Origin: a virus
DNA length: 64,000 nt
Virus record (IMG/VR): IMGVR_UViG_3300045921_000267
Span: 5,100 to 69,099 of that record
Strand: one strand, 5' to 3'
Below, piece by piece: positions 10,267 through 62,485 of the stretch; positions within the stretch are counted from its first letter, which is position 1, and each line of letters begins with the position of its first letter. The notes under the pieces were generated by a model. That model ran no database searches, was not told where the DNA came from, and saw only the letters and a program-made list of their open reading frames with translations. Position numbers and translations under genes: made by a program.

Positions 10267-10293
10267 GAGCGGTCTATACCCGATGGTACTTCT

Positions 10294-10884: not shown

Positions 10885-10893
10885 GCTTCCTCC

Positions 10894-41157: not shown

Positions 41158-42567
41158 TCAGATCGAGTTCGGCAGGCGACCGATGTTCTTCACCACGACG
41201 TTCTTGGCCGGGGTGTACATCTTGATCGCGCCGTAGATCACCTGCGCCCAGCGGATCGAGGTGTCGATCACTGCGAGCGGGATCCGCGTCATCGGCAGAA
41301 GCTGCGACCACGCGAACGACCGCTGGTTCTGCATGAGCACGAAGCCCTTGCTCGTGCCAGGGATGTCGGCGTTGCGATCGACGATCACCTGCGTGGCGCC
41401 CGTCCGGGGCACCTTGAACGCGAGCTTCGCATCGCTCACCGGCTGCCCCGGACGCGTACGGTAGACCTCGTAGTACGAGGTGCCCTGCCCGCCGTCCGTC
41501 ACGGTGATGCTCACCGCGTCGCCCGCCGCGACCGCCACGCCCGCACTCGTCACGGGCGTGCTGCGCCCGTAGCGACCACCTGCGACGATCTGGTAGATGT
41601 ACGTGCCCGCGTCGGCCGCGACGAACTGCGACAACGCATCCGGTGCCGCCGTCGGACCTGCGCTGATCGCCGGAGCGAGTGGGCGCTTGCTCGGCGAGCC
41701 GAGACCCGCCGCGATGGGAGGACCACCTGGGAGGATGAACACGGAGTCGTGCAGATTCACGCGCCCGTGCTGGCCCTGGAATGCCTTCACCGTCGCGCCG
41801 AGCACGCCAGGCTCGGGGCTCACGCTGAAACGCTGCCGGTCGTAGACCTGCTTCGCCACGTCCGCGAACGGACCCGTGTTGAAGTACGCGTCCGTGGCAA
41901 CGCCGAAGTTGTCGCGGACACGCAGCAGCATGTCGTTCAGGAGTTCCTCCGTGAGCGCGCCGCCGCGAAGGTCGATCACGTTGTCCGGCGCGCCGTCGGA
42001 GATGAGCTTGTAGAGCCCGTCGAACTGCTCGGGCAGCAGCGAAGAGTCGCCGAAGAAGAGCGCGTTCTCCAGTTGCTGGAGCAGCATCATCGTCTTGTTC
42101 ATGGTCTCCATCGCGATCACGTTGCCGTGAGCGGGACGGATCACCGACGCGACGTGCGTGACGCGCCCGACGATGCCGAGGAACTTGATCAACACGGTGA
42201 CACGCTGGTAGGTCGAGTCCTCCTCCTCGGGGAGATCACCCTCGGTCATCCATCCGAGGTCGAACTGCCGAGCACCGCCGCGCGAGTACGCGAGCAACCG
42301 GTTGAACTCCTCGACCGTGTTCGAGGCGGGGACCTTCGGGATGCTCTTGAAGAGCTTCACCTCGTCCATCTCGAACGTGAGATTCTTCAGGGTCGCTTCG
42401 AGCGACTCCGTGCGCAAGGGGAATCCCTGGCCAGGCGTGACGCCCGGATCGTTCACATCCTGCCCGGCGAAGAGTGCCTTGCGGAGGTTGGCGATCTCCT
42501 CCGGGCTGGCGATGCCGTGCCCGTTGAATTCGCGGTAGTCCCGCGCGCCGACGAAGGGGCTGATCAT
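41158..42567 (-). CDS. major capsid protein (Herelleviridae-like)
   Basis: LRKALFAG..LRTESLEATLKNLTF, ASNTVEEF, EGDLPEEEDSTYQR, ENALFFGDS, QFDGL, NVIDLRG, QLLPMTRIPLA. Confidence 0.95.
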   Translation of the reverse strand: MISPFVGARDYREFNGHGIASPEEIANLRKALFAGQDVNDPGVTPGQGFPLRTESLEATLKNLTFEMDEVKLFKSIPKVPASNTVEEFNRLLAYSRGGARQFDLGWMTEGDLPEEEDSTYQRVTVLIKFLGIVGRVTHVASVIRPAHGNVIAMETMNKTMMLLQQLENALFFGDSSLLPEQFDGLYKLISDGAPDNVIDLRGGALTEELLNDMLLRVRDNFGVATDAYFNTGPFADVAKQVYDRQRFSVSPEPGVLGATVKAFQGQHGRVNLHDSVFILPGGPPIAAGLGSPSKRPLAPAISAGPTAAPDALSQFVAADAGTYIYQIVAGGRYGRSTPVTSAGVAVAAGDAVSITVTDGGQGTSYYEVYRTRPGQPVSDAKLAFKVPRTGATQVIVDRNADIPGTSKGFVLMQNQRSFAWSQLLPMTRIPLAVIDTSIRWAQVIYGAIKMYTPAKNVVVKNIGRLPNSI

Positions 42568-42617
42568 GGTCTGCTTCTCCTCTTCTCTCGTTGGTTCACA
42601 CCATCACGCGCGGGCGA

Positions 42618-43646
42618 TCAGGCGTAGCTCTTGGCGAGGCCCGCCTCGCCGGGGTGGCGACGGAGGAAGTTCTGGACCTCTCCGAGGATGTTGCTCGGGA
42701 CCTCCGCACTGCTCTCGACGAGCGGCACGAGGTCGGTGGCGATCTTGCGACCGCCGATCTCCTTCACGCCCTTCTCCAGGTGCATGTAGGTCAGCACGCT
42801 CGCGATCTCGCTCTTCTTCAGCGAGCCCAGGCCCCCGGCCTCGTTCGGCATGCTCTTCTGCATCGGCTGCGCGCCCGAGAGCGACGTGACGCCCTTCGGC
42901 GCTGCGACCGGCTGCCTCTCGACGACGCCGAGCCGCTTGCCGAGTTCGTTGATGACGTGCTGCTGACTCTTCACGAGCGCGCCGAGCGCGTGCACGGTTT
43001 TCGCCATCGCGACGAACTGCTCGTCGCTGCGTCGCAGCGACTTGCGCATCCGACGATCGAGCGTGTCGAGCGCTTCCGTGGTGCGCGAAGTGAGCGTCTC
43101 CAGGAATGGCGAGACGTCCACGACCTCGCCGATGTCGGGGTCCCGGCGAAACTGCGAATCGAACGACGCGCTCTTGCCCATCCGGCGCTTGCCGCGCATG
43201 CCGACGGGCTGCTCCTCGTCCTCGTCTTCGTCCTCGTCTTCGTCCTCGAAGTCGTCCTCGTCGTCGAGGTCGTCCTCGGCCGCACCTGCGAAGGGAGGCA
43301 TCTTCGGGCCGCGCGCCTTGCCGCTCATGCTCGGGCTCGGACGCTGATGCTGGAAGAACGAGTCGCCGCCGACGTCCTTCATCATGCCCACGATCGTCGC
43401 CGCTTGCCCGGCGTTGAAGCCGGCCGCGGTGAGCTTGCCGATCATGAGGTTCTCGATCGAGCCGGCGTCGGACATGCTGCCCTGCCCGCCGCCCTGCATG
43501 CCGTCGCTGCCATGCGTACCACTGTTGTCGATGTTCACGCCGTCGCCCTTCACGAGCGGCTCGCCCGTGACTCGCGACGCAGCCTTCAGCAGGTCGTTCA
43601 AGCTCGCGTCGAGAGCGTCGAGCGTCGTGGTCTGCTCGTTCTCCAT
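42618..43646 (-). CDS. capsid scaffold protein
   Basis: Between protease and MCP; acidic tract, coiled coil, many K-S/K-A sites. Confidence 0.75.
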   Translation of the reverse strand: MENEQTTTLDALDASLNDLLKAASRVTGEPLVKGDGVNIDNSGTHGSDGMQGGGQGSMSDAGSIENLMIGKLTAAGFNAGQAATIVGMMKDVGGDSFFQHQRPSPSMSGKARGPKMPPFAGAAEDDLDDEDDFEDEDEDEDEDEEQPVGMRGKRRMGKSASFDSQFRRDPDIGEVVDVSPFLETLTSRTTEALDTLDRRMRKSLRRSDEQFVAMAKTVHALGALVKSQQHVINELGKRLGVVERQPVAAPKGVTSLSGAQPMQKSMPNEAGGLGSLKKSEIASVLTYMHLEKGVKEIGGRKIATDLVPLVESSAEVPSNILGEVQNFLRRHPGEAGLAKSYA

Positions 43647-43659
43647 CTTCTCTTCTCCT

Positions 43660-44523
43660 TCACTTCTTCGCGGCGCCCTTGAAGTGGAAGTCCGCGATTG
43701 CCTCCGCCTGCTTCAGCGAAAGGCCGGGCGCCATCGTCTGAAGCAGAACCGCCGTTTCGAGTCGCGTGATGGGCTCGCCAGCGAGCGCCTTGTCGAGCAC
43801 GCGTTGCTCGATCTCCGAGAGCTTCTTCTTTCGCTTCTTGATGCGTTCGATCGTGGGGCTCGTGCTACCCTGTGCCGCGGCTTCGACGCTGCGGCGCGCC
43901 ATCACACGAGCACCGCCGTCGCCTGTTGCACTTGCCGGAGCGATTGCGACGGGAGCGCTGCCAGCCGAGAGCGACTTCGCGAGCACGTGCAGCGCCGTGT
44001 TCGTATTCACTGGGCATCGGGTGATCGCGACCTCGCGCACGACCGCCTTGCGGATGACCGAGGGGTTCTTCGCGTCGCGCGCAGTGACACTGCCCTCGAC
44101 GCTGAAACCGAGTCGGCGATCGGTCTTCTGGAGCGCGTTCGCCAGCATCCACAGAGCGTCGGCCCGCGGGTGCCCGTCGAGCAGATAGCCCTCGACGTAC
44201 CATCCCTTGCGCATGCCCATCGTGCGGAACTCGGCGCGCGTCGGGTAGCCGACGACTGCATCCGTTGCGGGATCGTGGTTGTCGTTGAACCAACCATCCT
44301 TGAGGAACGGCGCGAAGTCCATCCCGTCTTGCAGGATCTTCTCGGCTTGGCGATCGAGGTCGTCGGTCGAGCAGATCCCACCGATGCGGCGATTCGTCGG
44401 AGCGCTCGTGTCGCTCTTCGTGAAGACCTCGGCATCACACTCGAAGCGCCACGCGTTGCCACGCCCGATGGGCGAGAGCGGCGTTGGGAAGACCTCGATC
44501 TGTGCTGCATCGAGAAACATCAC
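43660..44523 (-). CDS. prohead (capsid maturation) protease
   Basis: IGGICSTDDLDRQAEKI, GWFNDNH, VGYP, RLGFSVEG, VAITRCPVNTNT. Confidence 0.92.
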   Translation of the reverse strand: MMFLDAAQIEVFPTPLSPIGRGNAWRFECDAEVFTKSDTSAPTNRRIGGICSTDDLDRQAEKILQDGMDFAPFLKDGWFNDNHDPATDAVVGYPTRAEFRTMGMRKGWYVEGYLLDGHPRADALWMLANALQKTDRRLGFSVEGSVTARDAKNPSVIRKAVVREVAITRCPVNTNTALHVLAKSLSAGSAPVAIAPASATGDGGARVMARRSVEAAAQGSTSPTIERIKKRKKKLSEIEQRVLDKALAGEPITRLETAVLLQTMAPGLSLKQAEAIADFHFKGAAKK

Positions 44524-44530
44524 GTCTCCA

Positions 44531-44600
44531 GAACGACGAAAGGCGCGGAGCCCGACTCAGGTTCCGCGCCTCTTCTGCCCTTCTCCGCAGAGATCGGGCT
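44531..44600 (-). promoter_or_regulatory. two-hairpin leader (terminator- or attenuator-like) before the protease gene
   Basis: GCCCGATCTC-TGCG-GAGAAGGGC and AGGCGCGGAACC-TGAGTCG-GGCTCCGCGCCT-TTCGTCGTTCT just upstream of GGAG RBS. Confidence 0.5.
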
Positions 44601-44640
44601 AGGCCACGCGTGGAGTTATGACTGATACTCCATCCGCTCG

Positions 44641-44886
44641 TCAAGTACGACGCACGACGAGCTTCGGCTGCGACGCATCTTGGGCCTTGCGCAGCACGAT
44701 CGGACCGGGCGCGAGGACGAGCGGGATCAGCACGCCGCGCGAGCATGATGGGCAATTGATCTCAACCTCGCCGCTCTTGTACAGAACGAGGATGCTCGTC
44801 CGCGCTTTCACACGCGTACCATCGTGTGAAGCGCGGAAAAGCTGCGCCGCGCAGTGCGGGCAGCCGAGGTCGGGGTTCTTGTTCAC
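44641..44886 (-). CDS. small zinc-ribbon protein (Com-like)
   Basis: CPHC...EINCPSC. Confidence 0.7.
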   Translation of the reverse strand: MNKNPDLGCPHCAAQLFRASHDGTRVKARTSILVLYKSGEVEINCPSCSRGVLIPLVLAPGPIVLRKAQDASQPKLVVRRT

Positions 44887-45179
44887 GTCGGGACCACCAC
44901 GCCGAGCATGCGCGCTTGCACGACGGCACGCGAAGGCAACGGCACGCCGTGCGAGATGCAGGCGCGGAAGACGGCACGCTTCATCCGGTTGATCTCATCT
45001 TCAGTGTGCACCTTGCCAAGCGTGAGGATCGCGGCTGGGTTCATGATGAGGTCGAGCGCTTCGATCGCAGCGCTCGCGTTCGGGAGGTTCATGAAGTAGT
45101 CGAGCTTCACCCCGTTCTCGATCGAAAGGTCGTCGATCCCGGCACCTCGGAACACATCGGTATAGCGGTTGCCCATCAC
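44883..45179 (-). CDS. hypothetical protein
   Basis: AAGGAG RBS; overlapping start/stop with both neighbours. Confidence 0.65.
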   Translation of the reverse strand: MMGNRYTDVFRGAGIDDLSIENGVKLDYFMNLPNASAAIEALDLIMNPAAILTLGKVHTEDEINRMKRAVFRACISHGVPLPSRAVVQARMLGVVVPT

Positions 45180-48100
45180 GCATCTCCTTTGAACTTCGAG
45201 AACGGGATGAAGAAGCGCGAGAAGCTCTTCTGCGTCATCGCGGCCTTCTTCGCGGCACGCGTAGCGGCAGCCTTCTTCGCCGCCTCCTTCCGCTTCTTCG
45301 CATCCCTCTTCGCCTTCTGCGCCTCGAACTTCACCTTCATAGCGGCCATCTTCGCGGCCAGCTTCTCCCGCTTCGCCTTCCAGCGAGCAAGCATCTCCGC
45401 TTGCTTTTGCTGCCTCTTCGAGAGCGGAACTGCCTCGACGATCTCGCTCTTTGCGGTTGGCACCGCCGGAGGCTGGGGTGCTTCCGCTGCGGGCTTGCGC
45501 TCGCGCGGCGGCGCGCTCGGAAGCTGCGACATCGCGGCGAGCGAATGGCCCGTCGTCGGCAGGAAGTCGTACTGCGTCTCCACGGGCACGCCATCCTGCA
45601 CCGTCTTCATGAAGAACTCGAAGGGCACCTGCTTTGCGCGACCCTGCGTGAGCTGCGAGAGTTCCGCTTTGCTGGGTACCTCAGGCACGACATCGCCAGT
45701 CGGCACGCGGATCTTCTTCTTCTCGCCCGTGTTGGGGTCGGTGATCTGCACCGTCCTGAAGACGGGCATGTTCACCGACGTGGTGAGCCGCTTCACGTTC
45801 ACGAGGTACTTCCTCGACTTCAGGATCTCTCGCTCGAACGGTGAGAGATGCTTTTCGAGGATCTCATTCATGATGTCAGCGTTCGTGATCTCCGCAGGCT
45901 TGATCTGCCGTTCGATGACGCGCACAGCGCCAGTGACCGGATCGACGCGCTCGACGGGTTCGAGCTTGCGCCCGTACTGACGCAGTTGATCGCGCACCTT
46001 CGGACGCATCTCCGCGATCTTCGAGAACGCGCGATGCGCGAAGAATGCCTCGGCTGCGACCACGGGGTTGAAGCCCATGCTCATCGCCTGCGACTTCTCC
46101 GCTTCGTCGAGCGCCTCCCACGCTTCGTGAATGATGCTCATCGCGCTTTCCATGCCGGAGTACTCGGCGAGCCCGTTCTTCGCTTCGATCTCGCGCACGA
46201 TCTCGCCGAGGCGATCGAAGACGGGCTTCGCCTTGTCCGGGATGATGGCGTCGAGCATGCGCGCGGCGCGCGTGATCCGCTGCCACTCTTGCATGGGCGA
46301 GTGCAGCGAGTCGTACATCACGAGTTCACTTGCGTTGCCCCAGTTGAGCCCGACCTGCGCAGCATCCGACGCGATCATCATCTTGCAGTTGTTGAAGACG
46401 TCGATCTGGTGCGTCGAGAGCGGCGCACGATCGGTCACGTACTTCTGGAAGATGGCGTTCAGTTGCTTCGTGAATACATCCTTCTTCTCCAGTGGGGCGG
46501 CGTTGCGGCGCTGCTCCAGTTCCTGGATGAGCTTCCGATCCTTCGCGCTGATCTCGCTCTCGTAGACGTAGCCAAGGCGCGTCTCGTCACCGACGACGCG
46601 CGTGGTGACGCGCATGGGCACCTCGATGCCTCCCGTGCCGTCCGGGCCGGCGAAGAGACGACTGATGCGCTGGCGCTCCGCGCGAGACCAGCCCTCGAAG
46701 AACTCGCCAATCTTCGGCGGCTTGCCAACGCTACCGGTGAGCGTGCGGTGCACGAACATCGACGTCTCCGTGTCCTTCCCCATGTCGTCCTTGACCTTGC
46801 GGAAGATTTCGGAGTTCACATCGCGGTCACCAAGCGTCGCACCCTTGCCGAAGTAGGTGACGAAGTAGCCCATCTTCGGACGACGCTTCTTGTCCTCGTC
46901 GGACGAGTAGCCAGTATCCTCGTGCCCGAGCGCTTCGTTCACGTCCATGTAGCCCATCGATCGGAGCTTCGATTCCATCGTGCGGCACGACGAACCGATC
47001 CGGTTACCGAAGAGGATGAACTGCGCGTCGGGGTTGCCTCCCGTCGCGGTGTTCGTGCGCTCGCGGATGTAGCGTTCGAGTTCGTCGGCCTTCGCGTTGT
47101 TCGCAGTCATCGCCACGTCGAACATGGCGCGCTCGCGACGACGCAGCGGCGAGAGCTGAATGGAGAGCTTCGGATCCTTCGCCTTCTGCTGCTGGAGACC
47201 GGCCTTCTTCTTCTTGTCGCCTTCCGCTTCTTCGACGCTCTCATCGTCTTCTTCGTCGTCACCGCCCTCCGCATCGTCGGTGAACGTGCCGTTGAAGTCC
47301 CAATCGTCCTGGTGGTAGTAGAGACCCGCTGCCTTCTTCGACGGATCGCGGATGAACTTCGTGCCGATCGGTACTTCGATGCGCTCGCCGTTCCACTCCG
47401 CGACGAGAGGCTTCAGGTTGCCATCGGCGTCGAGGTACCCGCGCGCGATGCCGCCCTCAGGACCGTAGTCCGGGTTCGGGATCTTGCCCCACGACGTACC
47501 GTTGACGAAGCCCTTCTTGATGTCAGCGAGCAGCGCCTTGTCGATCTCGGTGCCTGCGAGCTTGTAGTAGTCGATGCCGAGGATCTGCGTAACGTAGAAC
47601 GAGAGCACCTCGAACTCACCCTCCGAGATGCGACCCTTCTCGACGTCCTTCGCGCTCGGCCACTTGCCGCCGAAGCCGTGCGGTGGCTTGCCCGTACATC
47701 GCTTGAAGTCGGGCAACATGAAAACACGCTCGACTTCCTTGATCTCCGTCTTGCCGGTCTTGCCCTTCTTCTCGGCGATCTTCTCGATGTACGTGACGAA
47801 CTCGCGCTGATCGGGGGGCTTGTAGCCCGGCGAGTTTGCGAATGCGCGTGCGACGTTGACCTTGCGACGCATGCCGCCAGAGAACGCAGCGGCTTCATCG
47901 GTGCCGAGCGCGCCCGCCTCTTCGAGCTTGATCATCTCTTGCTCGGTCATGGCGGCCATCGCCAGACGGTAGACTTTCTCCTGCATGCCCGTCATGTGAG
48001 CAGGCTGGTTCTCGTCGAGCAACACCGCAGGCATCGTCTTACCCTTCACGTCTTCCGTGAGAGCGACGTGCATGCGCGTCGCAAGGTACGACGCGAGTTC

Positions 48101-51100
48101 GGAGGCACGCTGCGGATTCAAATCCGTGCGCGGCGGATTCTTCGAGCCGTTCGCCACCATGACGGCACTCGGCGCGAGGTAGCGCTGCGAGAACTGCTTC
48201 TCGGTGCCGAACGGGCTCTTGCCGTTCGTGAGGAGATCGAAGTACCGCGGGATGGTGTTCAGGCGATTCGTGATCGGCGTCCCCGTGAGCAGCAGGAAGA
48301 GGTTCATGCTCGGGTTCCAACGCTCGACTGCGCGCGAGAGTTCGTTCTCGCGCGCGATCGCATGCGCCTCGTCCACGATGATCCCATCGAAGCCGCCATG
48401 CATGCGCAGGTCAGCCTCGTTGTCGCGAAAGTACTCGAACGGGATGATCACGACGTCGTTCTCTTTGTCGGCCTCGGGATCCCATCCGCTGGGGTTCTTC
48501 TTCAACCACTCGGCGCGGGCCTCAGCGACGCGTCGTGCATAGGCTTCCTCGCTCTCGCCATCCTTCTTCGGCGGCCAGTTCTTTGGCGAGAACGCCTGCA
48601 CGGCTCCGGCAAGCGTGTTCGCGCCGATGAGCGTCGCGCCCTTTTCCGTGAAGTCGATCGCGGCGCGCTGCCACTGCACCGCCGTGTTGAGCGGCACGAC
48701 GATCGCAACGCGCTTGCGCGGTGAGCCCTCGATGGGAGTGCCGTCGGGCTTCTTCGCGTTCTTCATCAGACGGATCGCGGCGAGTGCTGCGATCGTCTTG
48801 CCAGTGCCCATGAAGTGGGCCGCCATGCAGCGCCCCTCGGCACGTGCGCAAAGGCGGAGGAACTCCTCCTGATGCGAGCCGAGCTTGAAGCGCGATCCAT
48901 TCGCGAGGGTCGGCTTCAGTCCCTTCAGTAGCCCACCGTTCTCCTCGTCGGTGTTCACGCCGCCATCGGGGCTCGTGATCTGCGACGGCAGCACGACATC
49001 TCGCTGCTTCGCGCGTTCGACGTTGCGCTTCTCACTCCTCATGAGATCGTCGAGCAGTTGCTGCACGTACGAATCCATCACGAAGCCGCCGAACTCCTCA
49101 CGGAGCACGGAGATGTCGCGCAGGTCGATGAAGGGTCCCGTGTCGTCACTGCGCACCGCCGGGAAACGGCGGATCTCCTCAATCGAGATCGATCCATCGC
49201 TTGGGAGCTTCAGCCTCACGGTGCCGCCGCGGAGCTTGCCATCCGCGTCAAAGCGCAGATTGTCGCCGTAGAGCAGCAGGTGGTTCTTCATCGGCATGAC
49301 GTCGCGTCGTTGGCGCGTCACGTCATTGCGATCGACCGCGGTCGTGACCTTCTCCGCATCCTTTTCGCTGATGCGTGCGATCTTCGCGAGTCCGGTACCC
49401 TGCCCTTTCAGCGGTTGCACCTTGAACGTGCTCTTGCCCGGAATCTTCTCATCGTTCTCGTCGAAGGCATCCTGCACCTCGACGATCTCGCCGTAGACGA
49501 TCCGCTCACTCGTCGGGTCGCGGTACTTGATGAGAGCGCCCTGTCCGAACTCGATCGTGCGCGGCGGGATCTCGCGCACACCCTCGACGTTGATCTTGTT
49601 CTTCGAGTCGAGCAGCGAATCCACTCGCGCTTGCTCAACGCCAAGGATGCGATTCCAGTATTCGCCTGCGAGCAGCGGGTTGCCGCCGCCGTCGAACGTG
49701 ATCTTGATGTGCGCGTAGCTCGGGTTCTTGTCGGTGCCCGTCTGCACGGTGACCCACGTACTCGCCTGCGCCTTCGCAGCATCGCGCATGAGCCTCACGA
49801 GGTCACCCTCGTTGCGGATGCGCTCACCAAGCGGGTTGATGAGCTTGGCGAGCAACGGATCGGTGATCTGCCCTGCCTCGATCTTGCCGTTCTTGTGCAG
49901 AAGCATCTCGGCGGTCGTGCCAAGATCACGTGCGAGCTTCGCTGGCTCCAGTCGATCCCATCGAAGCTCGGGCCATGTACCCGTCGCGACCTTGCGGAGC
50001 TTGCCGCTCTTCGTGCGCTTCCACGCGAAGGGCTTCTCCTCAGGCGTCAGGCGCCCGTCAGGCTGGATGCGGTACCTGATCCACCGCTGCTCCGTCACAT
50101 CGACGCCAGATGACTCGCGACGCGTCACGGAGAGCGGCAACACGAACCTGCCGCCGGGCACGAAGGGCTCGCTCTCGTTGACGGTGATCTTCGTTTTCGT
50201 CCCGTCTGGATTCGGCATCTCGTAGACCGTCGCAGCACGCACGGGCTCGACCTTGCCGGTGATGGGGTCGTGCGCAGTGACGACGACGGGGCGCTTCAGC
50301 TTCTTGTCGTAGACGCGCTTCAGCAGCGGTTGCTTCTCCGCCTTGCGCAGTCCTTCGAACTTGAAGGTCGGCGTGAGAGCCTCGAACTCTTCGCGGCTCA
50401 TCTCCAGCGGAACCCACTCATGCCGGTCCTCGCGAAGCTCGGCGCTCGTCTTGCCCTTCTCGCGCAACTTGCGGACACGCTCGCGCTCTTTCTCTTGCGA
50501 TGCACGCGACTCACCGAGCTTCGCGAAGATGATACGACCAAGGTGCGACTGAAGTTCACCAGGCTCCCAGCCCACCACGTCGTCGCCGATCTTCTCGTTG
50601 AAGTCCTCGTCGTCTTGCCGGAGGTAGAGCAGCGCCTGATGCGGCGTCAGCGCGTTCCCGTTTTCATCGTATATCTCCTTGTAGACCTGCTGCGACTGGA
50701 AGCGCGCAGCGGTCGGCGAGTCGTAGACGGGAAGCTCGGTCTCGGGATCGATCGTCGGAGGCACCGGCTCCCATCCCGAAAGCTCTGCATCCTTGTCGGG
50801 CGGGCCGAGTCGGAAGAACACGGCGCGCCCCTTGTAGTGCACCGTGTAGAACTGATCCTTCTCGCTCCGGTAGGCGCCGACGTAGCTCGGTTGACCTTCG
50901 ATCTCGCGCTGCGCCGCGATGCGGCGCGCTGCTTTGCTCGCAGGCTTCAAGTCCCACCAGCGAAGCTCTTCATCCGGTACCTTCAGCATCTTGTCGAGCG
51001 AAGGGCCGGGGATGAGGCCGTGCTTGCGGAAGAACTCGTAGCGCGCGGGGCATTGACGAGCCATCTGCTTCGGTCGCGAGATCATGCACGCGACCGACTC

Positions 51101-51976: not shown

Positions 51977-51978
51977 TG

Positions 51979-52308
51979 TCACTCCTCCGAAGCGAGCAGA
52001 CAGAAGGGGTCGGGCAGCGAATGCACCGCAGCGACGAAGTGCTCCTCGGTGCCTGGCTCGTGCTCGACGAAGCCCTCCCATGTCTTGCCGTCGCGCGTGC
52101 CACCGGTACGCGCAGTGATCTTGCGGCCGAAGTGAGCAAAGAGATGCGAGCGCTCCACGTCGGTGAGCGGCTGCTTCACGTTCGAGAGTCCGATGCCGCC
52201 GTCCTCACGGCGGCGGATGTTGAACGCGAACTTTGCATCATCGCCGTCGATCCGGCCAACGTGATAGACGCGCTTCGCAGCCTTCTTCAGGTATTCACTC
52301 ATCTTCAT
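51979..52308 (-). CDS. hypothetical protein
   Basis: ATGA-coupled to the upstream gene; 109 aa. Confidence 0.65.
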   Translation of the reverse strand: MKMSEYLKKAAKRVYHVGRIDGDDAKFAFNIRRREDGGIGLSNVKQPLTDVERSHLFAHFGRKITARTGGTRDGKTWEGFVEHEPGTEEHFVAAVHSLPDPFCLLASEE

Positions 52309-55172: not shown

Positions 55173-56986
55173 CGGTCGAGCCTCACGTTCTGCGGCATGA
55201 AGCGCGTTGCTGCGGGGTCCGGGCGGCGCCGCTGCGACACCGGACGGATGAGCGAGCGGTAGTAGCGGTGCACGAACGTGAACTGTCGCGGGAAGTCACG
55301 CATGAGCGTCATGCGATCGTAGAGATACATCCTCGTTACCTCCGCCGCGCACTCGATGGGGAGCTTGCTCGCGTACTCCGTGACGAAGCCCTCCTCTTTC
55401 GCGATCGCGAAGAGCTTCTCGTGCCATGCCTTCACCTTCTCGATGCTGCCAAGACGGTGCATCAGAAACACGTTCGGCACGTGCCCCATCTCGTGTTCGA
55501 GCACCGCGCGCAGCTTGTCGAGTGGTAGGTTCTGCATGATGCGGATCTCGTTGCCGGTCCAGTACGCGAGATCGTGATCGTCGAGGTGCGAGTTCTGCGT
55601 TGGATGATCGGTCGTGATCAGCGTGATGCCCGTGCGCTTCGTGAAGAGCGTCTTCGGCGTGCGCGCGATCACGTCGTCGATGATCGCAAGTCGTTCAGGG
55701 TCGCCGACGCGAACGACGACGCCATGCTCGGGCACCGAGTCGCCATAGGAGAGCGCCTTGCGCAGATCGTGTTCGAGCATCCACGCCTTGCGCGTGCGCT
55801 TCGGCACGAGATTGCCCGTCGTGTCGAAGCCCCATCCTTCCGGCACGTGGACGAGCGCGCATTCACACCACGGATGCGTCGGTCCGACGACGGCGCGCCA
55901 GTCACGAGCTTTGCGACCGACGTTCGTGCCATTCGCTTGCAAGTCCGCGAGCCGGAACACGCGAGGGCGTGAGCCCTGCCCTGCGGTGAGATGCAGACGC
56001 ACGCAGTGATCGCACGCCGCAGGCGTGGGCACCTTCGCAACGAGGATGTCGCGTGGGTTGCCCTCGCGCTTCATGAGTCCTTGCACTTGTCCTTCCTGCA
56101 TGGCGCGCATCTTCTCAGTTGCGGCGATGCGTCCGAAGTCACGCGACCAGTCCTTCGTCTTGTGCCCGAGGTCACTCTTCATCTTGCGCCACGTTTCACG
56201 GCGCTCGATGTTCTCATCGAGCGTCTCTCGGATCGCACGCTGCATGCGCTGCTGGAGAGCGCGGTCAGCCTCGATGGCAGTCGTCTCGAAGTCCTGCGCG
56301 ACACGGTTGCCGAGACCGCGCACGTGCGTCGCCGCGCTGCGGCGCGCCCACTCGCGGGCGAACTCCTCGTCACTCGTCATCGGAAGCGGTCGTGTGGCGA
56401 GTCTGTTCTTGATCCCCTTCAGCGTCATCGCCGGGATCTTCACGACACCATGCGCGACTTGCGCGTTCACCTCAGCGAGCAGTTGCCCGTACGCGTACGC
56501 GTCGTCGATGATCCCGAGCGCGCTCTTCGGAAGGATGCCCATCGCTACGATGCGCTTCACCTCCTCGGGCGCAACGCTCGACGCGCCAAAGAAGCCGATC
56601 GCGATCGCGGTGTGATGATCAAGGATGATCTGCACAAGCTCGCGTAGTTGCGCCGTCGTGAAGAGCGGACGCGGTCCTCGCGCCTTCATGAAGTCGGCGT
56701 GCTTCGCGATGTAGCGATCGATCGCACTGAGCATGCGATCGATCTGCGCGTCGTACTCTCGCATCGCAAGATCGTACATCTCCGCGAGCGGCTTGTGCGC
56801 CTGGAACGGATTCTCGTTCGCGCGTGGCTCCGCCTTCACGAGCCATCGCCCACCGACGACGGCTTGCGCGATCAGGAAGGGGTCAGCGTGTGCAGGTGCT
56901 TCAATGCGCACGCACGCATGGTGCTCATGATGCGCATGCCCACACCCAGGCCCAGTTCCGGGCTCGTGCTCGTCGCTCGTGCTCAC
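55169..56986 (-). CDS. MuF-like (gpF/SPP1 gp7) head protein with C-terminal zincin domain
   Basis: DWSRDFGRIAATE, ACDHC, GPTHPWCEC; then VLEHEMGH..VTEYA..ECAAE. Confidence 0.85.
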   Translation of the reverse strand: MSTSDEHEPGTGPGCGHAHHEHHACVRIEAPAHADPFLIAQAVVGGRWLVKAEPRANENPFQAHKPLAEMYDLAMREYDAQIDRMLSAIDRYIAKHADFMKARGPRPLFTTAQLRELVQIILDHHTAIAIGFFGASSVAPEEVKRIVAMGILPKSALGIIDDAYAYGQLLAEVNAQVAHGVVKIPAMTLKGIKNRLATRPLPMTSDEEFAREWARRSAATHVRGLGNRVAQDFETTAIEADRALQQRMQRAIRETLDENIERRETWRKMKSDLGHKTKDWSRDFGRIAATEKMRAMQEGQVQGLMKREGNPRDILVAKVPTPAACDHCVRLHLTAGQGSRPRVFRLADLQANGTNVGRKARDWRAVVGPTHPWCECALVHVPEGWGFDTTGNLVPKRTRKAWMLEHDLRKALSYGDSVPEHGVVVRVGDPERLAIIDDVIARTPKTLFTKRTGITLITTDHPTQNSHLDDHDLAYWTGNEIRIMQNLPLDKLRAVLEHEMGHVPNVFLMHRLGSIEKVKAWHEKLFAIAKEEGFVTEYASKLPIECAAEVTRMYLYDRMTLMRDFPRQFTFVHRYYRSLIRPVSQRRRPDPAATRFMPQNVRLDR

Positions 56987-56989
56987 CGA

Positions 56990-57403: not shown

Positions 57404-59130
57404 CGCGAATCTCCCTCTTCGAGATCCATCTCGATCACGAGCCTACCACGCTCCGTCTTGCGCCTCACGCTCTTCAGCAAGCGATCGACGCCACGCATGC
57501 TCCGTTCGAGTTCAGCCTCTTCGGGAAGCTCGTCCACTTCACCCGCCTGAAGCTCTTCTTCATCGGGCGGAGGCTCCGGTGCTCCGTCGTCGTCCTCTTC
57601 GCCACCGGGCGACGGAGCGCCTCCCGCAGCAGCTTGTGACTGCTGCTCTTGCATCATCTTCTCTTGCTGCTTCGCTTGCGCGAACTGGAGCCACGTCGGG
57701 TTGTTGATGCACTGCCCAAGGCCATCAGGCAACGGCGGCAGGTCGTCGTCTGCGCGCACCTCGTCAACCATGCGGTACGCGCCGACTTCCTTGATGCGTG
57801 CCTCACGCTCCTTCTCTTCATCGCCAGCGTCGAGCCCGACGAACGAGAACTCGAACTCAGGCTCGATATCCCACACGATGTGCCGATTCATGTTGTCGGC
57901 GATGTGGTCCATGAGCGGGCGCAGTCCCTTGTCCTTCGACTCAGTGAGCTTCGCTTCCTGCTTGCCCTCGTTGAGCGAGTGCGACTGCCCCGTGTTGCCG
58001 AACTGGAAGTTGATCTCGACGGGATCGGCTCCGTAGACCGCGCACGTAAGCTTCGTGAGCCAGTCCATCCACGCGCTGAACTCCATCTCGCGGTTCGTCG
58101 AGTGCAGCGACTGCCACTGAATGTCTTCCGAGTTCAGGATGGGCGTGCGCCATGCGTTCGTGACACCAGTGACCTGCGAGTACCACATACGTCGAAACGC
58201 ACGGAGTTGGCGATCTGGAATGGCGCCCTTGATGTTCAAGATGCCTTTGATCGCCGAGCCTTGTGAGAAGAAGCGCTGGTTGTACTCGAAGCCGAAGAGC
58301 CACGCGGTCACAAGGTGCATCAACTGCTCGACGGGCGAATAGCCGAAGCCGTTCACGCGGAGATCGCTGCGTGGGTTCATGATGCACCACGCGAGATCAT
58401 CCGACGAGAACTCAGCGATCACCGAGTCTTCGTAGACCTGCACGTAGGCGACGCGCGAGTGTTTCTCCTCGGGGTCAAGATGCTCTGCATCCGACACCGC
58501 AGGTCGGATCGTCTCGCTCGGAAGCGCGATGAAGCGCGAGACCTTCCCGCGCCGATCGCGAATCTTTTCGAAGCACCACTGGTCGTAAGTGAGGATGTCA
58601 CGCACGCCCTTCTTCACGAAGAGCGTGAACGAGTCTCGGTCGGCGGGCTTTTCGTCAGGCAGCAAGATGCCCGTCGTTTCGATCATCCGCTCGATCTCAC
58701 TCGCCCGCTTCTGCTCGGCGGGTGTCATGCTCTTCCACCGATCGCGGCGATCACGCTTGATGATGCGGTAGCCGCGATCGTACTTGCCCTGCTGCGGACG
58801 CGAGAACTGCGCAACCTGGTTGCAACGCAGCGTGATCAACGCAGCGATCACCGTGTTGCGCGCAGTCATCTGGCGGAGCGTCTCGTAGGTCAGCGACGAC
58901 GGACGCTCCCGCCAGCCTCCCCAGTCGATGATGCTGTAGGGGTCGTGGAAGAGAGCACGCGGCTTCTCGTCAGTAGCCTCGGGCAGTCCTCCGTCATCCG
59001 CAGCGAGCCCAGCGTCACGAAGGGCTTTCGCCATGTCGGCGTTGGAGACGTCGCCTCCGTCGCCGATCATGTCACCGATCCGCCGGAACGCACCGCCGAG
59101 CCCGGCGCGGATGTCGTCGAAGATGCCCAT
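57400..59130 (-). CDS. portal protein
   Basis: RDILTYD..FEKIRDR, NPRSD..GFGYSPVE, YNQRFFSQG..KGIL, GVTNAWRTP, EMEF..DPVEINF, SKDKGLRPL. Confidence 0.95.
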   Translation of the reverse strand: MGIFDDIRAGLGGAFRRIGDMIGDGGDVSNADMAKALRDAGLAADDGGLPEATDEKPRALFHDPYSIIDWGGWRERPSSLTYETLRQMTARNTVIAALITLRCNQVAQFSRPQQGKYDRGYRIIKRDRRDRWKSMTPAEQKRASEIERMIETTGILLPDEKPADRDSFTLFVKKGVRDILTYDQWCFEKIRDRRGKVSRFIALPSETIRPAVSDAEHLDPEEKHSRVAYVQVYEDSVIAEFSSDDLAWCIMNPRSDLRVNGFGYSPVEQLMHLVTAWLFGFEYNQRFFSQGSAIKGILNIKGAIPDRQLRAFRRMWYSQVTGVTNAWRTPILNSEDIQWQSLHSTNREMEFSAWMDWLTKLTCAVYGADPVEINFQFGNTGQSHSLNEGKQEAKLTESKDKGLRPLMDHIADNMNRHIVWDIEPEFEFSFVGLDAGDEEKEREARIKEVGAYRMVDEVRADDDLPPLPDGLGQCINNPTWLQFAQAKQQEKMMQEQQSQAAAGGAPSPGGEEDDDGAPEPPPDEEELQAGEVDELPEEAELERSMRGVDRLLKSVRRKTERGRLVIEMDLEEGDSR

Positions 59131-59155
59131 GCCAGAGCCTACCGCAGCCTGCGCT

Positions 59156-60151
59156 TCAGCGCTTCGGATTGATGCCGAGGTCGAGCCCGTAGACGTCCTG
59201 CATGAGCGCGAAGCGAGCGTGGTGCACGTTCGCCAACATCTGCACGGGGTTCACACCGTCGTCTTCGAGCTTCACGTTCTCGCTTCCGGCAAGCACGCTC
59301 ATGGTGCGCTCGACCGACTTGCGCATCTCCTCTTCGCTCGGGAACGCGCCACTGTCGGCCGAGAGCGACTTGCCGATGCCCGCCGCCGTCTGCTGCTCGG
59401 AGAACATGTAACCCTCCAAGAAGTCGCCGTTGACCTCGGAGCCGTTGAATGCAGGCTTCACGAGACCCATCGCGCGCAGACGTGACGCAACGAAGTCCTT
59501 CGTCGCGTTCAGCTTCACGCACGCACGCAAGATGTTCTCGTTCTTGCCGCAGTAGATCACGAGTTCGTTCATGACCCACTGCGCCCACCAGTCAGCCTCG
59601 TCACCGCCGATGCCGCCGTTCGCACCGTCGGGCTGCGAGATGCCCATGATCGCCGCGTTCTCGTCGTGGCATCGCTCGCGCTTCTCGTGCTCGTACGCTT
59701 CTTCGATGAACGCGTCGAGGTACGCGGCGAGGTAGTCGTCGGGGATCTTGCTCATCCCCTTGTAGCCAGGCTCGAACGCGTACAGGCCCTTCGCCATCAG
59801 GTCTTCCTGCGCGATCACCATCTTGATCTGCTCACGCAGTTCGGGGGTGCTTTCCATCATGTCGATCATCTCCTCATGCTGCGCGTGGTGCGCCATGCTT
59901 TTCTGCGTGTGTCCGCGGGCTTTCTTCTTCCCCCGCATGCGCTCACGCGCGGCCTCGCGCCCGCTCACGTGGGCGGCCTCGCCGTGATCACGGTCGTACT
60001 CCTCCTTCGAGTAGTAGTACCGCCACGGCTTCTTCGGATTCCACGTAGGAACGCGACGGTAGTACTTCCCGCCGCGGGCGATGCCCTTTGCGAAGTCATC
60101 GATCGTGTCGAGGGCAAGAGTCGGAATGTCGTCGAAGTCCATGCGCACCAT
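59156..60151 (-). CDS. hypothetical head-associated protein
   Basis: FAKG site, then GGKYYRRVP..WRYYY motif; several further K-S/K-G sites. Confidence 0.7.
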   Translation of the reverse strand: MVRMDFDDIPTLALDTIDDFAKGIARGGKYYRRVPTWNPKKPWRYYYSKEEYDRDHGEAAHVSGREAARERMRGKKKARGHTQKSMAHHAQHEEMIDMMESTPELREQIKMVIAQEDLMAKGLYAFEPGYKGMSKIPDDYLAAYLDAFIEEAYEHEKRERCHDENAAIMGISQPDGANGGIGGDEADWWAQWVMNELVIYCGKNENILRACVKLNATKDFVASRLRAMGLVKPAFNGSEVNGDFLEGYMFSEQQTAAGIGKSLSADSGAFPSEEEMRKSVERTMSVLAGSENVKLEDDGVNPVQMLANVHHARFALMQDVYGLDLGINPKR

Positions 60152-60166
60152 CCTACCACGTGATCG

Positions 60167-60586
60167 TCACTTGCCCTTGGGCACGACGAGCTTCGGCATC
60201 GGGCCGACCTTCACCGGCTGCGGCGGCTTGTACGAAGCGATGACGCCGCGACGCTTGCTCGATGCCAACGAGCGCCGCGGCGGGTTCTGCGGGAAGTCGT
60301 CGGTCTCATACCGGAGGATGGGCGTGCCCTCGGGGTCGGCCGTGCCGTGGAAGCCATACTTGCCTCGGTTCGCGATGCCCATCGCGCGACGTTGCGTCTC
60401 GCGTGCAGCGGCCTCGTCCTGGCGTCGCGGATCGTCGTCGGGCTGATAGTAGATGCTCGCGTAGTCCGGCATCGCGTCGTACGGTGCCGGTGTTGCCCCG
60501 GTGTTCGAGACAAGCGTGCCCTTGCTCTTGCCGTAGATGCGGCGAAGCCCTCGCTCGATCTCAGCATGTTCGCGAAGCTTCTTCAT
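60167..60586 (-). CDS. hypothetical protein
   Basis: Tightly packed and co-oriented; ends PKLVVPKGK. Confidence 0.6.
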   Translation of the reverse strand: MKKLREHAEIERGLRRIYGKSKGTLVSNTGATPAPYDAMPDYASIYYQPDDDPRRQDEAAARETQRRAMGIANRGKYGFHGTADPEGTPILRYETDDFPQNPPRRSLASSKRRGVIASYKPPQPVKVGPMPKLVVPKGK

Positions 60587-60589
60587 CTC

Positions 60590-62485
60590 TCACACGCCGT
60601 AGAGGTCGAGAAAGGTCATCGGAGCGCGCGCGACGTGGCGCATCGGCGCGACGTAGTGCACGGGCACGCTCTTGCGCAGCGTCGCGTCGAGCTTCGGCGC
60701 AAGCTTCAGCACCTCGCGCCACTCGGCGCTCTTCACGAGGTGCATGCTCTTCTCGACGGCGATCTTGCTCTTCTTCTGGCGCACGCCTTCGAGCGCTTTC
60801 CCTGCCTTCTCGCCGAGCGTGGAGAGCTTCGCCATCGCAGCCATGAACGCCTGAAAGATCGGGTTCGCACGGATGCGCTCGTTGCGAAGCAGCACTTGCT
60901 GGGCAGCAACTTCCTTCATGGCGAGCTGGTGCGCGTCTTCGAGCTGCACGATGTCATGCTTCGTTGCCGCGATCTCCGCATCGATCTGCGCGACCATGCG
61001 CCGCGCGAGCGGGTGCCCGCTACGCTTCACTTCGAGGCGCTTCGCCCGCAACGACGAGAGATGATCGTACGCCTGCGAGAGGTCGGCCATGATGTTGACC
61101 ACTTTCCCGATCTTCTCGCGCATGCCCCTCACGCTCTCGCTCTCGGGCACGAACCGCTCGCGCGGCTCGGCAGCGCGGGACTGCTGCTCGTCCTTCCCCA
61201 TCGCGCGCTCATGCTGCGACTCGACGGCGCTCGACGCTTCGTCGTCTCCAGCATCGGCGCCAGGGTAGTCTTTCTTCGGCTTGTACACCTTGCCCTGCAT
61301 CTGCGCGAGCAAGCGGTTGTGCTTGTCCGCGTGATAGTTCATCGCGTAAGTATGCGCCTTCGCCTTCTCAGCGTCGCCCATGCGCATCGCTTTCGACTTT
61401 TCCGTGCGATGCCTGCGGAACTCCGCAGCGTGGTGCTCATGATCGTCCTCCTTCCCAGCCGGGGTGTACGCCCACACCTGCGGATGGAACACGCGCTTCT
61501 CGCCGTGCGCGTCCTTCTGCACGTGCGGCTTCACCTGCGCAAAAGCGCCCTGCGGGCCGCCTGCGGCCTTTGGGGGCTCGCCTGGTACCTGAGGCGGAGG
61601 CGGACCGCCCGCGAGCTTCTGAGAGGCTCCATGGGGCGCGAGCGGGCCTTCCTGACCCTGCCCGGCGCCCTTGCCAGGCTTTCGCGGAACCGCCGTGGCG
61701 TCCGCCGCGCGCTTCGCCCGTGCGCCTCCCGCGTCGTCGGGGTGCGCCGTGCTCGTGATGCCTGCGCCCGGATACCAGTAGATCCAACCGTCGGCGCCGC
61801 GCTTGCGAAAGCCACCCTTGCGTGAATGCGGGATGGGCGAGAAGCCTGCGGGCGGCGTGCTCGCACCCTTCAACGCGCCTTCACCGGCTCCATCGGTCGG
61901 TGTCACGTTCAGGCTCTCAGGCATCGTCTTAGACTTTGCCTTCCGAAGCGGGTCACGGATGATGAAGCGCACTCCGCTCTTCGCGGTGATCAAGGTGTCG
62001 CTTCGCATCTGCGGTCGTTGCGGTGCACGCACGGTCGGCTCCTTCGCGTAGTCAGTCGGCTGCGTGTTGCGCCAGAACGCACGAGCCCTTTTCGCGATCT
62101 CCATCCGAGCATCGCTAGGCACGCCGTGGATGCGACGAAGCGACTCGGTGAGCGCGTTCACGGCGAGAAACACGCGCTGCGTCTGCCCCTTCGTCTGATA
62201 GGCAACGCCTTGCTCTTCGATCATCTTGAGCACGCGCGCTTCGGTCACGCGATCGAGCCCGAGCCCTGCGGTGATCGCATCAAGACTCTCGACACGACGC
62301 GGCAAAGGCGCGGTGTATTCATCGGCCTCGCGCGTGCGAAAGACACGGTTCGCTTCCGCTTGCTCCGCTGCGAGTTCGCCGCGTCCTGCCTGCGCACGTG
62401 CCGCGAGATTCTTCGCTTGACCGGGGATGGCCCACGGCGCGCTGTAGCCGGGCAATTGGGCGCTCGGATTCGGACGCTCGGGCAT
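60590..62485 (-). CDS. hypothetical head-associated protein
   Basis: Start MPERPN after AGGTGA; GFSPIP..GGFRKR..WIYWYP motif; coiled coil; clustered K-S sites at C-terminus. Confidence 0.7.
   Translation of the reverse strand: MPERPNPSAQLPGYSAPWAIPGQAKNLAARAQAGRGELAAEQAEANRVFRTREADEYTAPLPRRVESLDAITAGLGLDRVTEARVLKMIEEQGVAYQTKGQTQRVFLAVNALTESLRRIHGVPSDARMEIAKRARAFWRNTQPTDYAKEPTVRAPQRPQMRSDTLITAKSGVRFIIRDPLRKAKSKTMPESLNVTPTDGAGEGALKGASTPPAGFSPIPHSRKGGFRKRGADGWIYWYPGAGITSTAHPDDAGGARAKRAADATAVPRKPGKGAGQGQEGPLAPHGASQKLAGGPPPPQVPGEPPKAAGGPQGAFAQVKPHVQKDAHGEKRVFHPQVWAYTPAGKEDDHEHHAAEFRRHRTEKSKAMRMGDAEKAKAHTYAMNYHADKHNRLLAQMQGKVYKPKKDYPGADAGDDEASSAVESQHERAMGKDEQQSRAAEPRERFVPESESVRGMREKIGKVVNIMADLSQAYDHLSSLRAKRLEVKRSGHPLARRMVAQIDAEIAATKHDIVQLEDAHQLAMKEVAAQQVLLRNERIRANPIFQAFMAAMAKLSTLGEKAGKALEGVRQKKSKIAVEKSMHLVKSAEWREVLKLAPKLDATLRKSVPVHYVAPMRHVARAPMTFLDLYGV

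Follow-up and report, generated by a model that had tools for sequence, protein, structure and literature searches.

The 64,000-nucleotide stretch analyzed here, which we call the window, comprises bases 5100-69099 of a 69,099-base linear contig (IMG/VR virus record IMGVR_UViG_3300045921_000267). Its GC content is 62%-68% along its length (63% overall), and nearly every gene lies on the minus strand. From high to low coordinates, the genes encode the large terminase; open reading frames (ORFs) of 142, 631, 139, and 331 aa; the portal; ORFs of 137, 580, 955, and 109 aa; a 2266-aa protein; two small ORFs; the prohead protease; the scaffold; and the major capsid protein (MCP). Neck, sheath, baseplate, and helicase genes follow downstream. 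The genes from terminase to MCP form the head-morphogenesis module of an uncultivated, high-GC phage, which is a myovirus because neck, sheath, and baseplate genes lie downstream. A first-pass annotation had proposed that ∼17 kb of this block encodes pro-proteins that are loaded into the prohead, cut by the prohead protease at a hydrophobic-x-Lys motif, and ejected with the DNA. Conservation among related sequences indicates that the motif is a real, selected signal, common to the canonical protease substrates and to the proteins encoded between terminase and protease (hereafter, cargo proteins). The protease probably trims the leaders and tails of the cargo proteins and cuts some of the joints between their modules.

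We defined the strict motif as [LIVMF]-x-K-[SAG], with the predicted cut (written ↓) after the Lys (P1) and a small residue at P1′, and compared counts in each protein with 500 residue shuffles. All of the motif strings listed by the first-pass annotation were present in the translated ORFs of the stated proteins (MCP, scaffold, protease, portal, and the 2266-, 955-, 605-, 331-, and 631-aa proteins; the 605-aa ORF is 580 aa in the database gene call P0001, which starts at VRIEAP). The motif was indeed dense in the scaffold (nine sites versus 1.45 expected, z = 6.7) and the protease (five versus 1.24, z = 3.6), and the pooled MCP, scaffold, protease, and portal carried 19 sites against 5.2 expected, a count reached by none of 1000 shuffles. 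Weak enrichment was seen in the 331-aa protein (4 vs. 1.28, z = 2.5) and the 605-aa ORF (4 vs. 1.52, z = 2.1), and a 667-aa ORF had four sites with 2.69 expected. The annotation had also remarked that the motif appears rare in tail proteins. Here, 39 pooled downstream ORFs (tail, neck, and replication) had 16 sites versus 21.4 expected (P = 0.13), and the motif is rare there because lysine content is low (2.6%, compared with 7.0% in cargo ORFs), a composition effect.

Site retention was scored in pairwise alignments to related loci, which are metagenomic contigs of up to ∼118 kb, with a site counted as kept if it was found in at least 75% of relatives. Thirteen of 32 motif sites in the window were kept, compared with 17 of 115 sites of eight control patterns (Fisher P = 0.0026). 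None of six motif sites in tail and neck proteins was kept (11 of 77 control-pattern sites were), with relatives that are more distant there (38%-41% identity for the sheath); cargo sites remain conserved at similar distances. Strong selection on the motif was evident in at least six proteins between terminase and protease, after short N-terminal leaders, before short hydrophobic C-terminal tails, and at some joints. The annotation had placed the motif at the termini and domain boundaries of the large proteins, and this held for leaders, tails, and several module joints, while many of the individual sites that it listed were unconserved.

Sites were conserved in the canonical substrates as well. 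The predicted maturation site of the MCP, NLRK↓ALFAG, had been likened to that of Herelleviridae capsid proteins. L-x-K↓A was kept in all six aligned relatives (five of five in the retention test), and K30↓A of the window aligns with K23↓A of SPO1; the window MCP is 31%-34% identical to SPO1-like Herelleviridae MCPs, and all 783 matching phage records have <60% identity. The scaffold sites include LKKS and LEKG besides the seven already listed, and seven of the nine (K21, K33, K158, K226, K264, K278, and K292) were retained by at least two of the three relatives compared, whose own scaffolds carried eight versus 1.59, eight versus 1.59, and seven versus 1.06 sites. A strict motif lay within the last 45 aa of 16 out of 16 distinct portals (background 0.159), inside an otherwise unalignable acidic tail.

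The protease is a distant relative of the Herelleviridae enzymes. A profile of the window protease and six relatives aligned to SPO1 gp3.2 with an hhalign probability of 99.87% (E = 1.7e-31, 33% identity over 215 columns). SPO1 gp3.2 and the 812h1 protease pass the PF04586 Peptidase_S78 profile (26.7 and 23.7 bits; cut-off 21), a profile that the window protease itself does not match. Residues H83 and S141 were invariant in 151 of 151 aligned sequences, making them a candidate catalytic dyad. With E up to 1e-3 as the limit, the protease clade had 1435 representatives in a library whose sequences were clustered at 50% identity. A set of 150 representatives contained 1024 motifs versus 202.5 expected; the LAK↓S site after the catalytic domain (K183) was kept in 129 of 150, and the N-terminal site (K36) was present within ±8 residues in 136 of 148. 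An unbiased scan of these representatives recovered the same specificity, with Lys enriched 5.1-fold at P1 (followed by Phe at 2.5-fold and Arg at 1.3-fold) and Ser 6.9-fold, Ala 5.6-fold, and Gly 3.4-fold at P1′, where all other residues were at or below 1.4-fold.

Structures and sequences of cultured phages bear out the Herelleviridae analogy. The MCP chain of a Staphylococcus phage in PDB 9row (439 aa) starts, by alignment offset, 24 residues into the 463-aa precursor 5lii, and the phage 812h1 MCP reads VVK24↓S25, matching this loss; HK97, in turn, is cut at K103/S104 (PMC10275583). Motif counts were high in the SPO1 scaffold (11 vs. 1.33) and 812 gp95 (7 vs. 1.38), with further SPO1 and 812 scaffold or protease values of eight versus 1.57 and six versus 1.53. 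In shuffles of the MCP, portal, neck, sheath, and ribonucleotide reductase subunit of SPO1 and 812, the motif was not enriched.

Among the cargo proteins, the 580-aa protein had three strongly conserved sites. In the best 120 of 194 homologs at E up to 1e-10 (down to ∼37% identity), the leader site K26 was kept in 105 of 113 and the linker site K76 in 107 of 109, with Leu at P3 in 96 and Ala, Ser, or Gly at P1′ in 94, 10, and three, respectively. K385, where a Cys-motif domain meets the HEMGH zincin domain, was kept in 119 of 119 (P1′ Ala in 75, Ser in 37, and Gly in seven). Around the conserved P3, P1, and P1′ residues, P2, P4, and P2′ vary. In an AlphaFold2 model (pLDDT 86.7), K26 and K76 fall in low-confidence coil (block mean pLDDT 63 and 68), and K385 falls where a low-confidence helix ends (blocks of 63 and 77), with a well-predicted part on either side. 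Several homologs of this protein (P0007, P0013, P0023, P0051, and others) and of the 2266-aa protein (P0270, P0274, P0285, and P0290) carry intein/Hint domains (PF14890 and PF13403), from which the window copies are free.

As to domain identities, the 580-aa family carries HEMGH without variation (H473, E474, and H477 in alignment A2), and a Foldseek search of the model against PDB gave no match at E ≤ 0.001, with weak zincin-type rows. The evidence for the two metallopeptidases that had been proposed thus consists of HExxH motifs, Pfam hits below threshold, and weak matches in fold. The MuF identity given to the same protein was not recovered, with no Pfam or PHROG hit in the window protein and no Pfam MuF hit in 10 out of 10 homologs tested of the 120.

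The 955-aa protein was compared with 31 homologs that share a common body. Its leader site K17 was kept in 21 of 29 and K167, which ends the InPase module, in 29 of 30; a C-terminal site ∼55 residues from the end was kept in 21 of 30, aligned seven residues off the window MEK↓S. Assignment of the InPase and SNF2 domains stands (Table 1), and the sigma factor is supported only at the profile level: The sigma-like stretch had no Pfam hit and matched TIGR02479 at E = 0.066 (cut-off 189.6 bits), and a profile of 25 homologs hit RpoS chains at E = 2e-5 across RpoS residues 123-223 and again, weakly, at 273-308.

Across related loci the InPase module occurs in nine different fusion contexts, with x-K↓[SAG] on both flanks. 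Among the best 120 of 572 InPase proteins, a strict motif lay within 24 aa upstream in 76 (74 of 118 after removing two slicing artefacts; background 0.105) and within 45 aa downstream in 85 (background 0.199), corresponding to binomial P < 1e-30. The domain (955-aa residues 19-143) also matches residues 635-754 of the 765-aa "gp19 Portal" chain of PDB 9b41_L (E = 1.4e-28) and, being within a solved portal chain, is therefore physically inside a capsid in that case. A subgroup lacking the strict flanking motif (P0145, P0153, P0169, P0177, P0181, and others), with many members on 180-198 kb contigs and many with DUF5661, has flanks that are conserved otherwise (…K-A/N-H/Y-K-L-Q-G… and …N-H-G-K-K-I/V-A…) and may follow another processing rule.

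In the 2266-aa protein, conservation was concentrated at the two ends. Among 52 homologs, the leader site K18 was strictly kept in 41 of 50 by column; a motif was found in the N-terminal 32 aa in 49 of 53 sequences (background 0.109), and K[SAG] in the last 30 aa in 50 of 53 (background 0.364), followed by a hydrophobic tail. Internally, K1018, just before the SNF2 domain, was Lys in 33 of 52 and Lys or Arg in 41, and K2053 was Lys in 19 of 52 and Lys or Arg in 40.

The smaller cargo proteins link motif sites to gene boundaries. After near-duplicate loci (L002, L015, and L025) were dropped, L-x-K↓G preceded the C-terminal module of the 331-aa protein (after K121) in 10 out of 10 relatives, and a motif preceded its small basic-aromatic module (after K22) in six of six; K261 and K278 were each kept in four of six. 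A strict motif followed the N-terminal module of the 631-aa protein within ∼25 aa in six of six relatives, with differing downstream partners, and the C-terminal sites of this protein were kept only in L006 among few homologs. Modules encoded here as separate genes (139 and 331 aa) form inner parts of larger proteins elsewhere, and the opposite arrangement was seen too. Gene ends in one phage are internal motif sites in another.

Short hydrophobic elements recur beside the leader and tail sites. Three leaders, 17, 18, and 26 aa long, terminate in h-x-K↓A (h, hydrophobic), in the manner of T4-type capsid-targeting sequences (CTS). A [KRQ]-h-h-[VIAL]-P element occurs within the first 14 residues in three unrelated cargo families, at 43 of 120 (background 0.0025), 23 of 53 (0.0055), and seven of 40 (0.0035), and similar elements are found in C-terminal tails. 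We speculate that these elements are loading tags.

A cultured phage has this code in cargo genes that stand alone. Synteny with the window is seen in Bordetella phage vB_BbrM_PHB04 (94 kb), whose genes run from the portal through cargo genes, a 2097-aa methylase, and then a 1518-aa helicase to proteins occupying the positions of protease, scaffold, and MCP. The PHB04 MCP shares 28.6% identity with that of the window (E = 2e-34) and reads QELQK36↓AL, and the motif is abundant in the scaffold-position (8 vs. 1.32) and protease-position (6 vs. 1.37) proteins. The PHB04 InPase is a stand-alone 169-aa gene product whose 8-residue leader ends in LLK↓A and whose tail follows MIK↓A; hydrophobic leaders of 6-8 residues ending in L-x-K↓A are found on RelA/SpoT, the 2097-aa methylase, and the 1518-aa helicase, and in the portal LQK↓A is followed by the last 11 residues. 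RelA/SpoT and a Ser/Thr phosphatase likewise have genes of their own in this phage, located between portal and InPase (L040, 6283-7556), and no motif was found in the first 45 residues of the phosphatase. In Pbunavirus NH-4, our single contrast case, gp19 carries the InPase at the portal C terminus and has the same length as the 765-aa 9b41 chain; NH-4 shows no motif at the portal-InPase joint and no Lys-Ser excess in the protease or scaffold.

Table 1. Features of the head block and neighboring genes, in window coordinates
Feature	Position	Strand	Database match	Sites and remarks
Large terminase, nuclease half	63084-64000	-	phrog_31692 (3.7e-34); PF17289	Truncated by the contig end; upstream limit of the block
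631-aa protein	60590-62485	-		Junction K182 (61940-61942); C-terminal K579, K585, K605, then tail with HYVAP
139-aa protein	60167-60586	-		Ends KLVVPK↓GK; same module internal to larger proteins in relatives
331-aa protein	59156-60151	-		K22 (60086-60088), K121 (59789-59791), K261, K278
Portal, 576 aa	57400-59130	-	PF04860 (9e-21)	C-terminal K553 (57472-57474), DRLLK↓S
580-aa protein	55169-56911	-		K26 (56834-56836), K76 (56684-56686), K385 (55757-55759)
955-aa polyvalent protein	52305-55172	-	PF18823 (1.7e-37)	Leader 1-17 (K17, 55122-55124); InPase 18-167 (K167, 54672-54674); 731-aa body with sigma-like stretch; tail after K898 (52479-52481)
2266-aa HExxH + SNF2 protein	45176-51976	-	PF00176 (1.4e-16); gene call P0241 (2266 aa)	18-aa leader MKFVVP...ELVK↓A, K18 (51923-51925); possible sites K1018 (48923-48925) and K2053 (45818-45820); TQK↓S, K2250 (45227-45229), then 16-aa tail
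81-aa Cys-rich ORF	44641-44886	-		Cys pairs CPHC and CPSC; ends VLRK↓A, then 13-residue tail with KLVV; known from sequence only
Prohead serine protease, HK97/S78-like, 287 aa	43660-44523	-	phrog_1028 (2.7e-46)	Predicted self-trimming sites K36 (44416-44418), K183 (43975-43977)
Scaffold, 342 aa	42618-43646	-		Nine strict sites
MCP, 469 aa	41158-42567	-	phrog_752 (1.1e-83)	Predicted cut after K30 (codon 42478-42480), NLRK↓ALFAG
Basic-aromatic element, four copies	51818-51886, 54576-54629, 60011-60073, 61772-61822	-		5-40 residues after a conserved K↓[SAG] site
Helicase genes	8887-12330	-	DnaB-like, phrog_19 (4.7e-42); SF2, phrog_16 (8e-58)	After the tail module

Several further observations concern the block and its surroundings. 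The small Cys-rich ORF separates the protease from the 2266-aa gene. A small basic-aromatic element, H/G-K-Y/H-x-x-R/K-R ... W/V-x-Y-x-Y, is shared by four cargo proteins (2266, 955, 331, and 631 aa) and has no matching family in the library searched; in relatives, it occurs together with a second element, GPFIGPKGG...HTIPW, at shuffled joints. The helicase genes stand behind the tail module on the same strand, and the contig is therefore not purely structural; contigs of relatives are as long as 100-118 kb. A 469-kb contig assigned to Acidimicrobiia by binning holds, 3-25 kb from its end, a portal relative (locus L029, 68% identity over residues 186-467), which may reflect a prophage, hint at the host, or be an artefact of binning or assembly. 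The metagenome-assembled genome (MAG) labels of two related contigs, Gammaproteobacteria and Acidimicrobiia, are uninformative on host.

From these patterns we infer cleavage, packaging, and ejection of the cargo, as follows. Cargo proteins would be recruited into the prohead, perhaps via their leader and tail peptides, many of which have a strand-like [KR]-h-h-[VIA]-P element. The S78-like prohead protease, recognizing hydrophobic (Leu)-x-Lys followed by Ser, Ala, or Gly, would mature the MCP, degrade the scaffold, and trim itself and the portal; it would also remove the cargo leaders and tails and separate a few modules, namely the InPase from the 955-aa body, the Cys-motif domain from the zincin, and, within the 331- and 631-aa proteins, one module from the next. 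The predicted products include an InPase of ∼150 aa and a zincin of ∼195 aa, while the SNF2 giant and the sigma-like body would stay largely intact, and all would exit with the DNA. We consider leader and tail trimming together with cutting at some joints to be the probable reading of the conserved sites. The earlier picture of a set of separate effectors is therefore narrowed: It is retained for the InPase and the zincin domain, tentative for the separation of zincin from SNF2 (K1018, Lys in 33 of 52), and given up for the SNF2 giant and the sigma-like body.

A number of results weigh against this reading. Whole-protein motif density in the cargo was at background, with eight sites versus 9.70 expected in the 2301-aa ORF (the 2266-aa protein), three versus 3.44 in the 955-aa protein, and 25 versus 19.8 (P = 0.13) in nine pooled cargo ORFs. 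We therefore rejected raw motif density as evidence of cargo processing, the rarity in tail proteins being compositional as well; density supports only the canonical substrates. Neither the 2266-aa protein nor the 731-aa body of the 955-aa protein has a universally conserved internal site: No conserved site was found in homologs across 955-aa residues 168-898, K1018 and K2053 are partly conserved and often have Arg at P1, and the other five window sites of the 2266-aa protein were kept in 4-25 of 51-52 homologs (LRK↓A in nine of 51). The fourth site of the 580-aa protein, ILPK↓S, was kept in two of 14 homologs, the scaffold sites MRKS and LAKS in zero of three relatives each, and the portal N-terminal MAKA (K35) in just six of 17, so that, of the two portal ends said to carry the motif, the C-terminal LLKS stands and the N-terminal site does not. 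These four sites, along with LFK↓S of the MCP and five internal sites of the SNF2 protein, were dropped as unconserved. K385, the best conserved joint, is predicted to be helical, and 44 of the 120 InPase proteins are without a strict upstream motif.

Further points in the same direction concern the enzyme and its documentation. The window protease matched no Pfam family at E up to 5 and gave no NCBIfam hit of note, and sequence and profile searches against PDB returned no relative; its S78 membership is indirect because it is without its own Pfam or PDB match. A search of the PHB04 record with the window protease found no relative (blastp to the protease-position protein, E = 0.48). A literature search for proteomic or biochemical data on this phage or close relatives found no such paper. 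Lastly, zincin domains are present in two of the cargo proteins themselves, and Iyer et al. propose such domains as processing enzymes.

This last point leads to the alternative that fares best, by which the zincin (MPTase) domains embedded in the 580- and 2266-aa proteins cleave at these joints, whether in cis or in trans, and the likeness to the prohead motif is coincidental or secondary. MPTase domains have been argued to process polyvalent proteins (Iyer et al. 2017; PMC5512222), and the invariant HEMGH motif, the weakly supported zincin fold, and the presence of a 580-aa family member adjoining the portal in sampled relatives (16 hits) fit such a role. The same P3/P1/P1′ pattern, however, is found in the MCP, scaffold, protease, and portal of the window, and in the SPO1 and 812 scaffolds and proteases, a group in which a mature chain documents the MCP cut after Lys; a zincin would need the specificity of an unrelated serine protease. 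The site kept in 119 of 119 homologs is immediately upstream of the zincin domain, a position that fits either enzyme. Overall, we regard zincin processing of the joints as unlikely.

Alternatively, the L-x-K-[SAG] elements could be docking or encapsidation signals that are never cut, binding, for example, the protease, the scaffold, or the capsid interior, with the cargo packaged as intact polyproteins. The virion RNA polymerase of phage N4 is packaged unprocessed, as described by Iyer et al. (PMC5512222), the 2266-aa family keeps a length of 2100-2500 aa across its 52 homologs, and the NH-4 InPase stays fused to the portal, with the domain included in the solved 765-aa chain. Yet the pattern is a documented cleavage site (812 MCP; HK97 K103/S104), and P1′ is restricted to small residues, as for a scissile bond. 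Moreover, the stand-alone genes of PHB04 and the split genes of relatives start or end at the motif, and NH-4, the phage with the fused domain, is the one without the joint motif and without the Lys-Ser excess. We therefore think it quite improbable that the conserved sites are left uncut.

Chance, whereby proteins rich in Lys, in Ala, Ser, or Gly, and in helix yield the motif at random and the boundary instances were picked by the annotator, accounts for the background density and the unconserved sites noted above and is the right explanation for those instances, but it is refuted for the conserved subset, and very improbable overall, given near-universal sites with free neighboring positions, control patterns and tail proteins that behave otherwise, and the bias at InPase flanks.

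Protease-processed, leader-targeted head cargo has precedent in T4, in giant phages, and in P1, and the domain sets seen here were already described by Iyer et al. (2017). In T4, a single prohead protease, gp21, cuts the MCP, the scaffold core, and packaged internal proteins at one short consensus, and short N-terminal CTS leaders send cargo into the prohead and are then removed (PMC9024508). The gp21 specificity is I/L-x-E (PMC12991175), unlike the P1 Lys and small P1′ of the S78-like protease in the window, and T4 cargo consists of small internal proteins, whereas the window cargo, known from sequence alone, consists of multidomain polyvalent proteins that are 300-2266 aa long and have internal joints as well as C-terminal tails. 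SPN3US and phiKZ-like phages likewise have many head and ejection proteins cut by one essential prohead protease (PMC10052503, PMC7411985, PMC5694885), and differ from the window in protease lineage, motif, and phage group. The P1 Dar system (DarB, DarA, and DdrB) resembles the window in that a helicase-type antirestriction protein of ∼250 kDa is encoded next to the portal and protease; a signal of 30 residues at the DarB N terminus suffices for capsid targeting, and the P1 MCP is processed by the head protease, but at E120/S121 (PMC9024508). The window differs in that its giant combines HExxH and SNF2, with no methyltransferase hit in a domain search, and in that its leader ends in the protease motif.

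A further related system is the set of polyvalent proteins of Iyer et al. (PMC5512222), in which InPase, SNF2, and zincin/MPTase domains occur in large proteins in virion neighborhoods, with domain shuffling and predicted delivery with DNA. The window shares these traits: Two effector-type domains are found in the 955-aa protein (InPase and the sigma-like stretch) and in the 2266-aa protein (HExxH and SNF2), homologs add SAM lyase, PBECR3, topoisomerase I, Zeta toxin, DarA_C, and LPD1 domains, and the genes sit among virion structural genes with domains shuffled between relatives. The passages of that work covered here assign processing to the MPTase and describe no prohead-protease motif at the joints. 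Our literature search found no paper tying polyvalent-protein joints to such a motif, with prior art in supplements possible, and none on a Lys-specific cut in Herelleviridae scaffolds.

With HK97 gp4 and the Herelleviridae, the window shares a Ser/His prohead protease, an MCP cut between Lys and a small residue (HK97 K103/S104, 812 K24↓S25), the order portal-protease-scaffold-MCP, and, for the Herelleviridae, MCP homology. It differs in a P1′ widened to Ala and Gly across its clade and in the ∼17 kb of cargo genes between portal and protease. The ICTV profile describes Herelleviridae as having Firmicutes hosts, genomes of 125-170 kb, and shared core genes. The window phage has an MCP 31%-34% identical to theirs and a homologous protease, but its GC content is 63%, its contig is incomplete at 69 kb, and the MAG labels of two related contigs are not Firmicutes; it is probably not a member of the family.

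Polyvalent proteins are thought to be a main route by which phages deliver anti-defense and take-over enzymes together with their DNA. For the window phage and a large clade of relatives, the rule L-x-K↓S/A/G at conserved joints predicts concrete mature products, and it competes with the published idea of MPTase autoprocessing, from which it is experimentally separable; cultured systems that carry the code are Bordetella phage PHB04 (cargo) and SPO1 or K-like phages (scaffold). We raise tentatively, as a generalization that we consider rather doubtful, that the prohead protease and not the embedded zincins is the general processor of phage polyvalent proteins, that the joints carry its code, and that the short peptides are a portable capsid-loading tag. 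The proposed tag ([KR]-h-h-[VIA]-P N termini and hydrophobic tails after K↓S) may be likened to encapsulin cargo-loading peptides, and a short leader might load foreign proteins into capsids. Were the general rule true, genes could go from fused to split or back with their function preserved, since the protease would restore the same products, and the mature effector sets of thousands of uncultivated phages would become readable from sequence.

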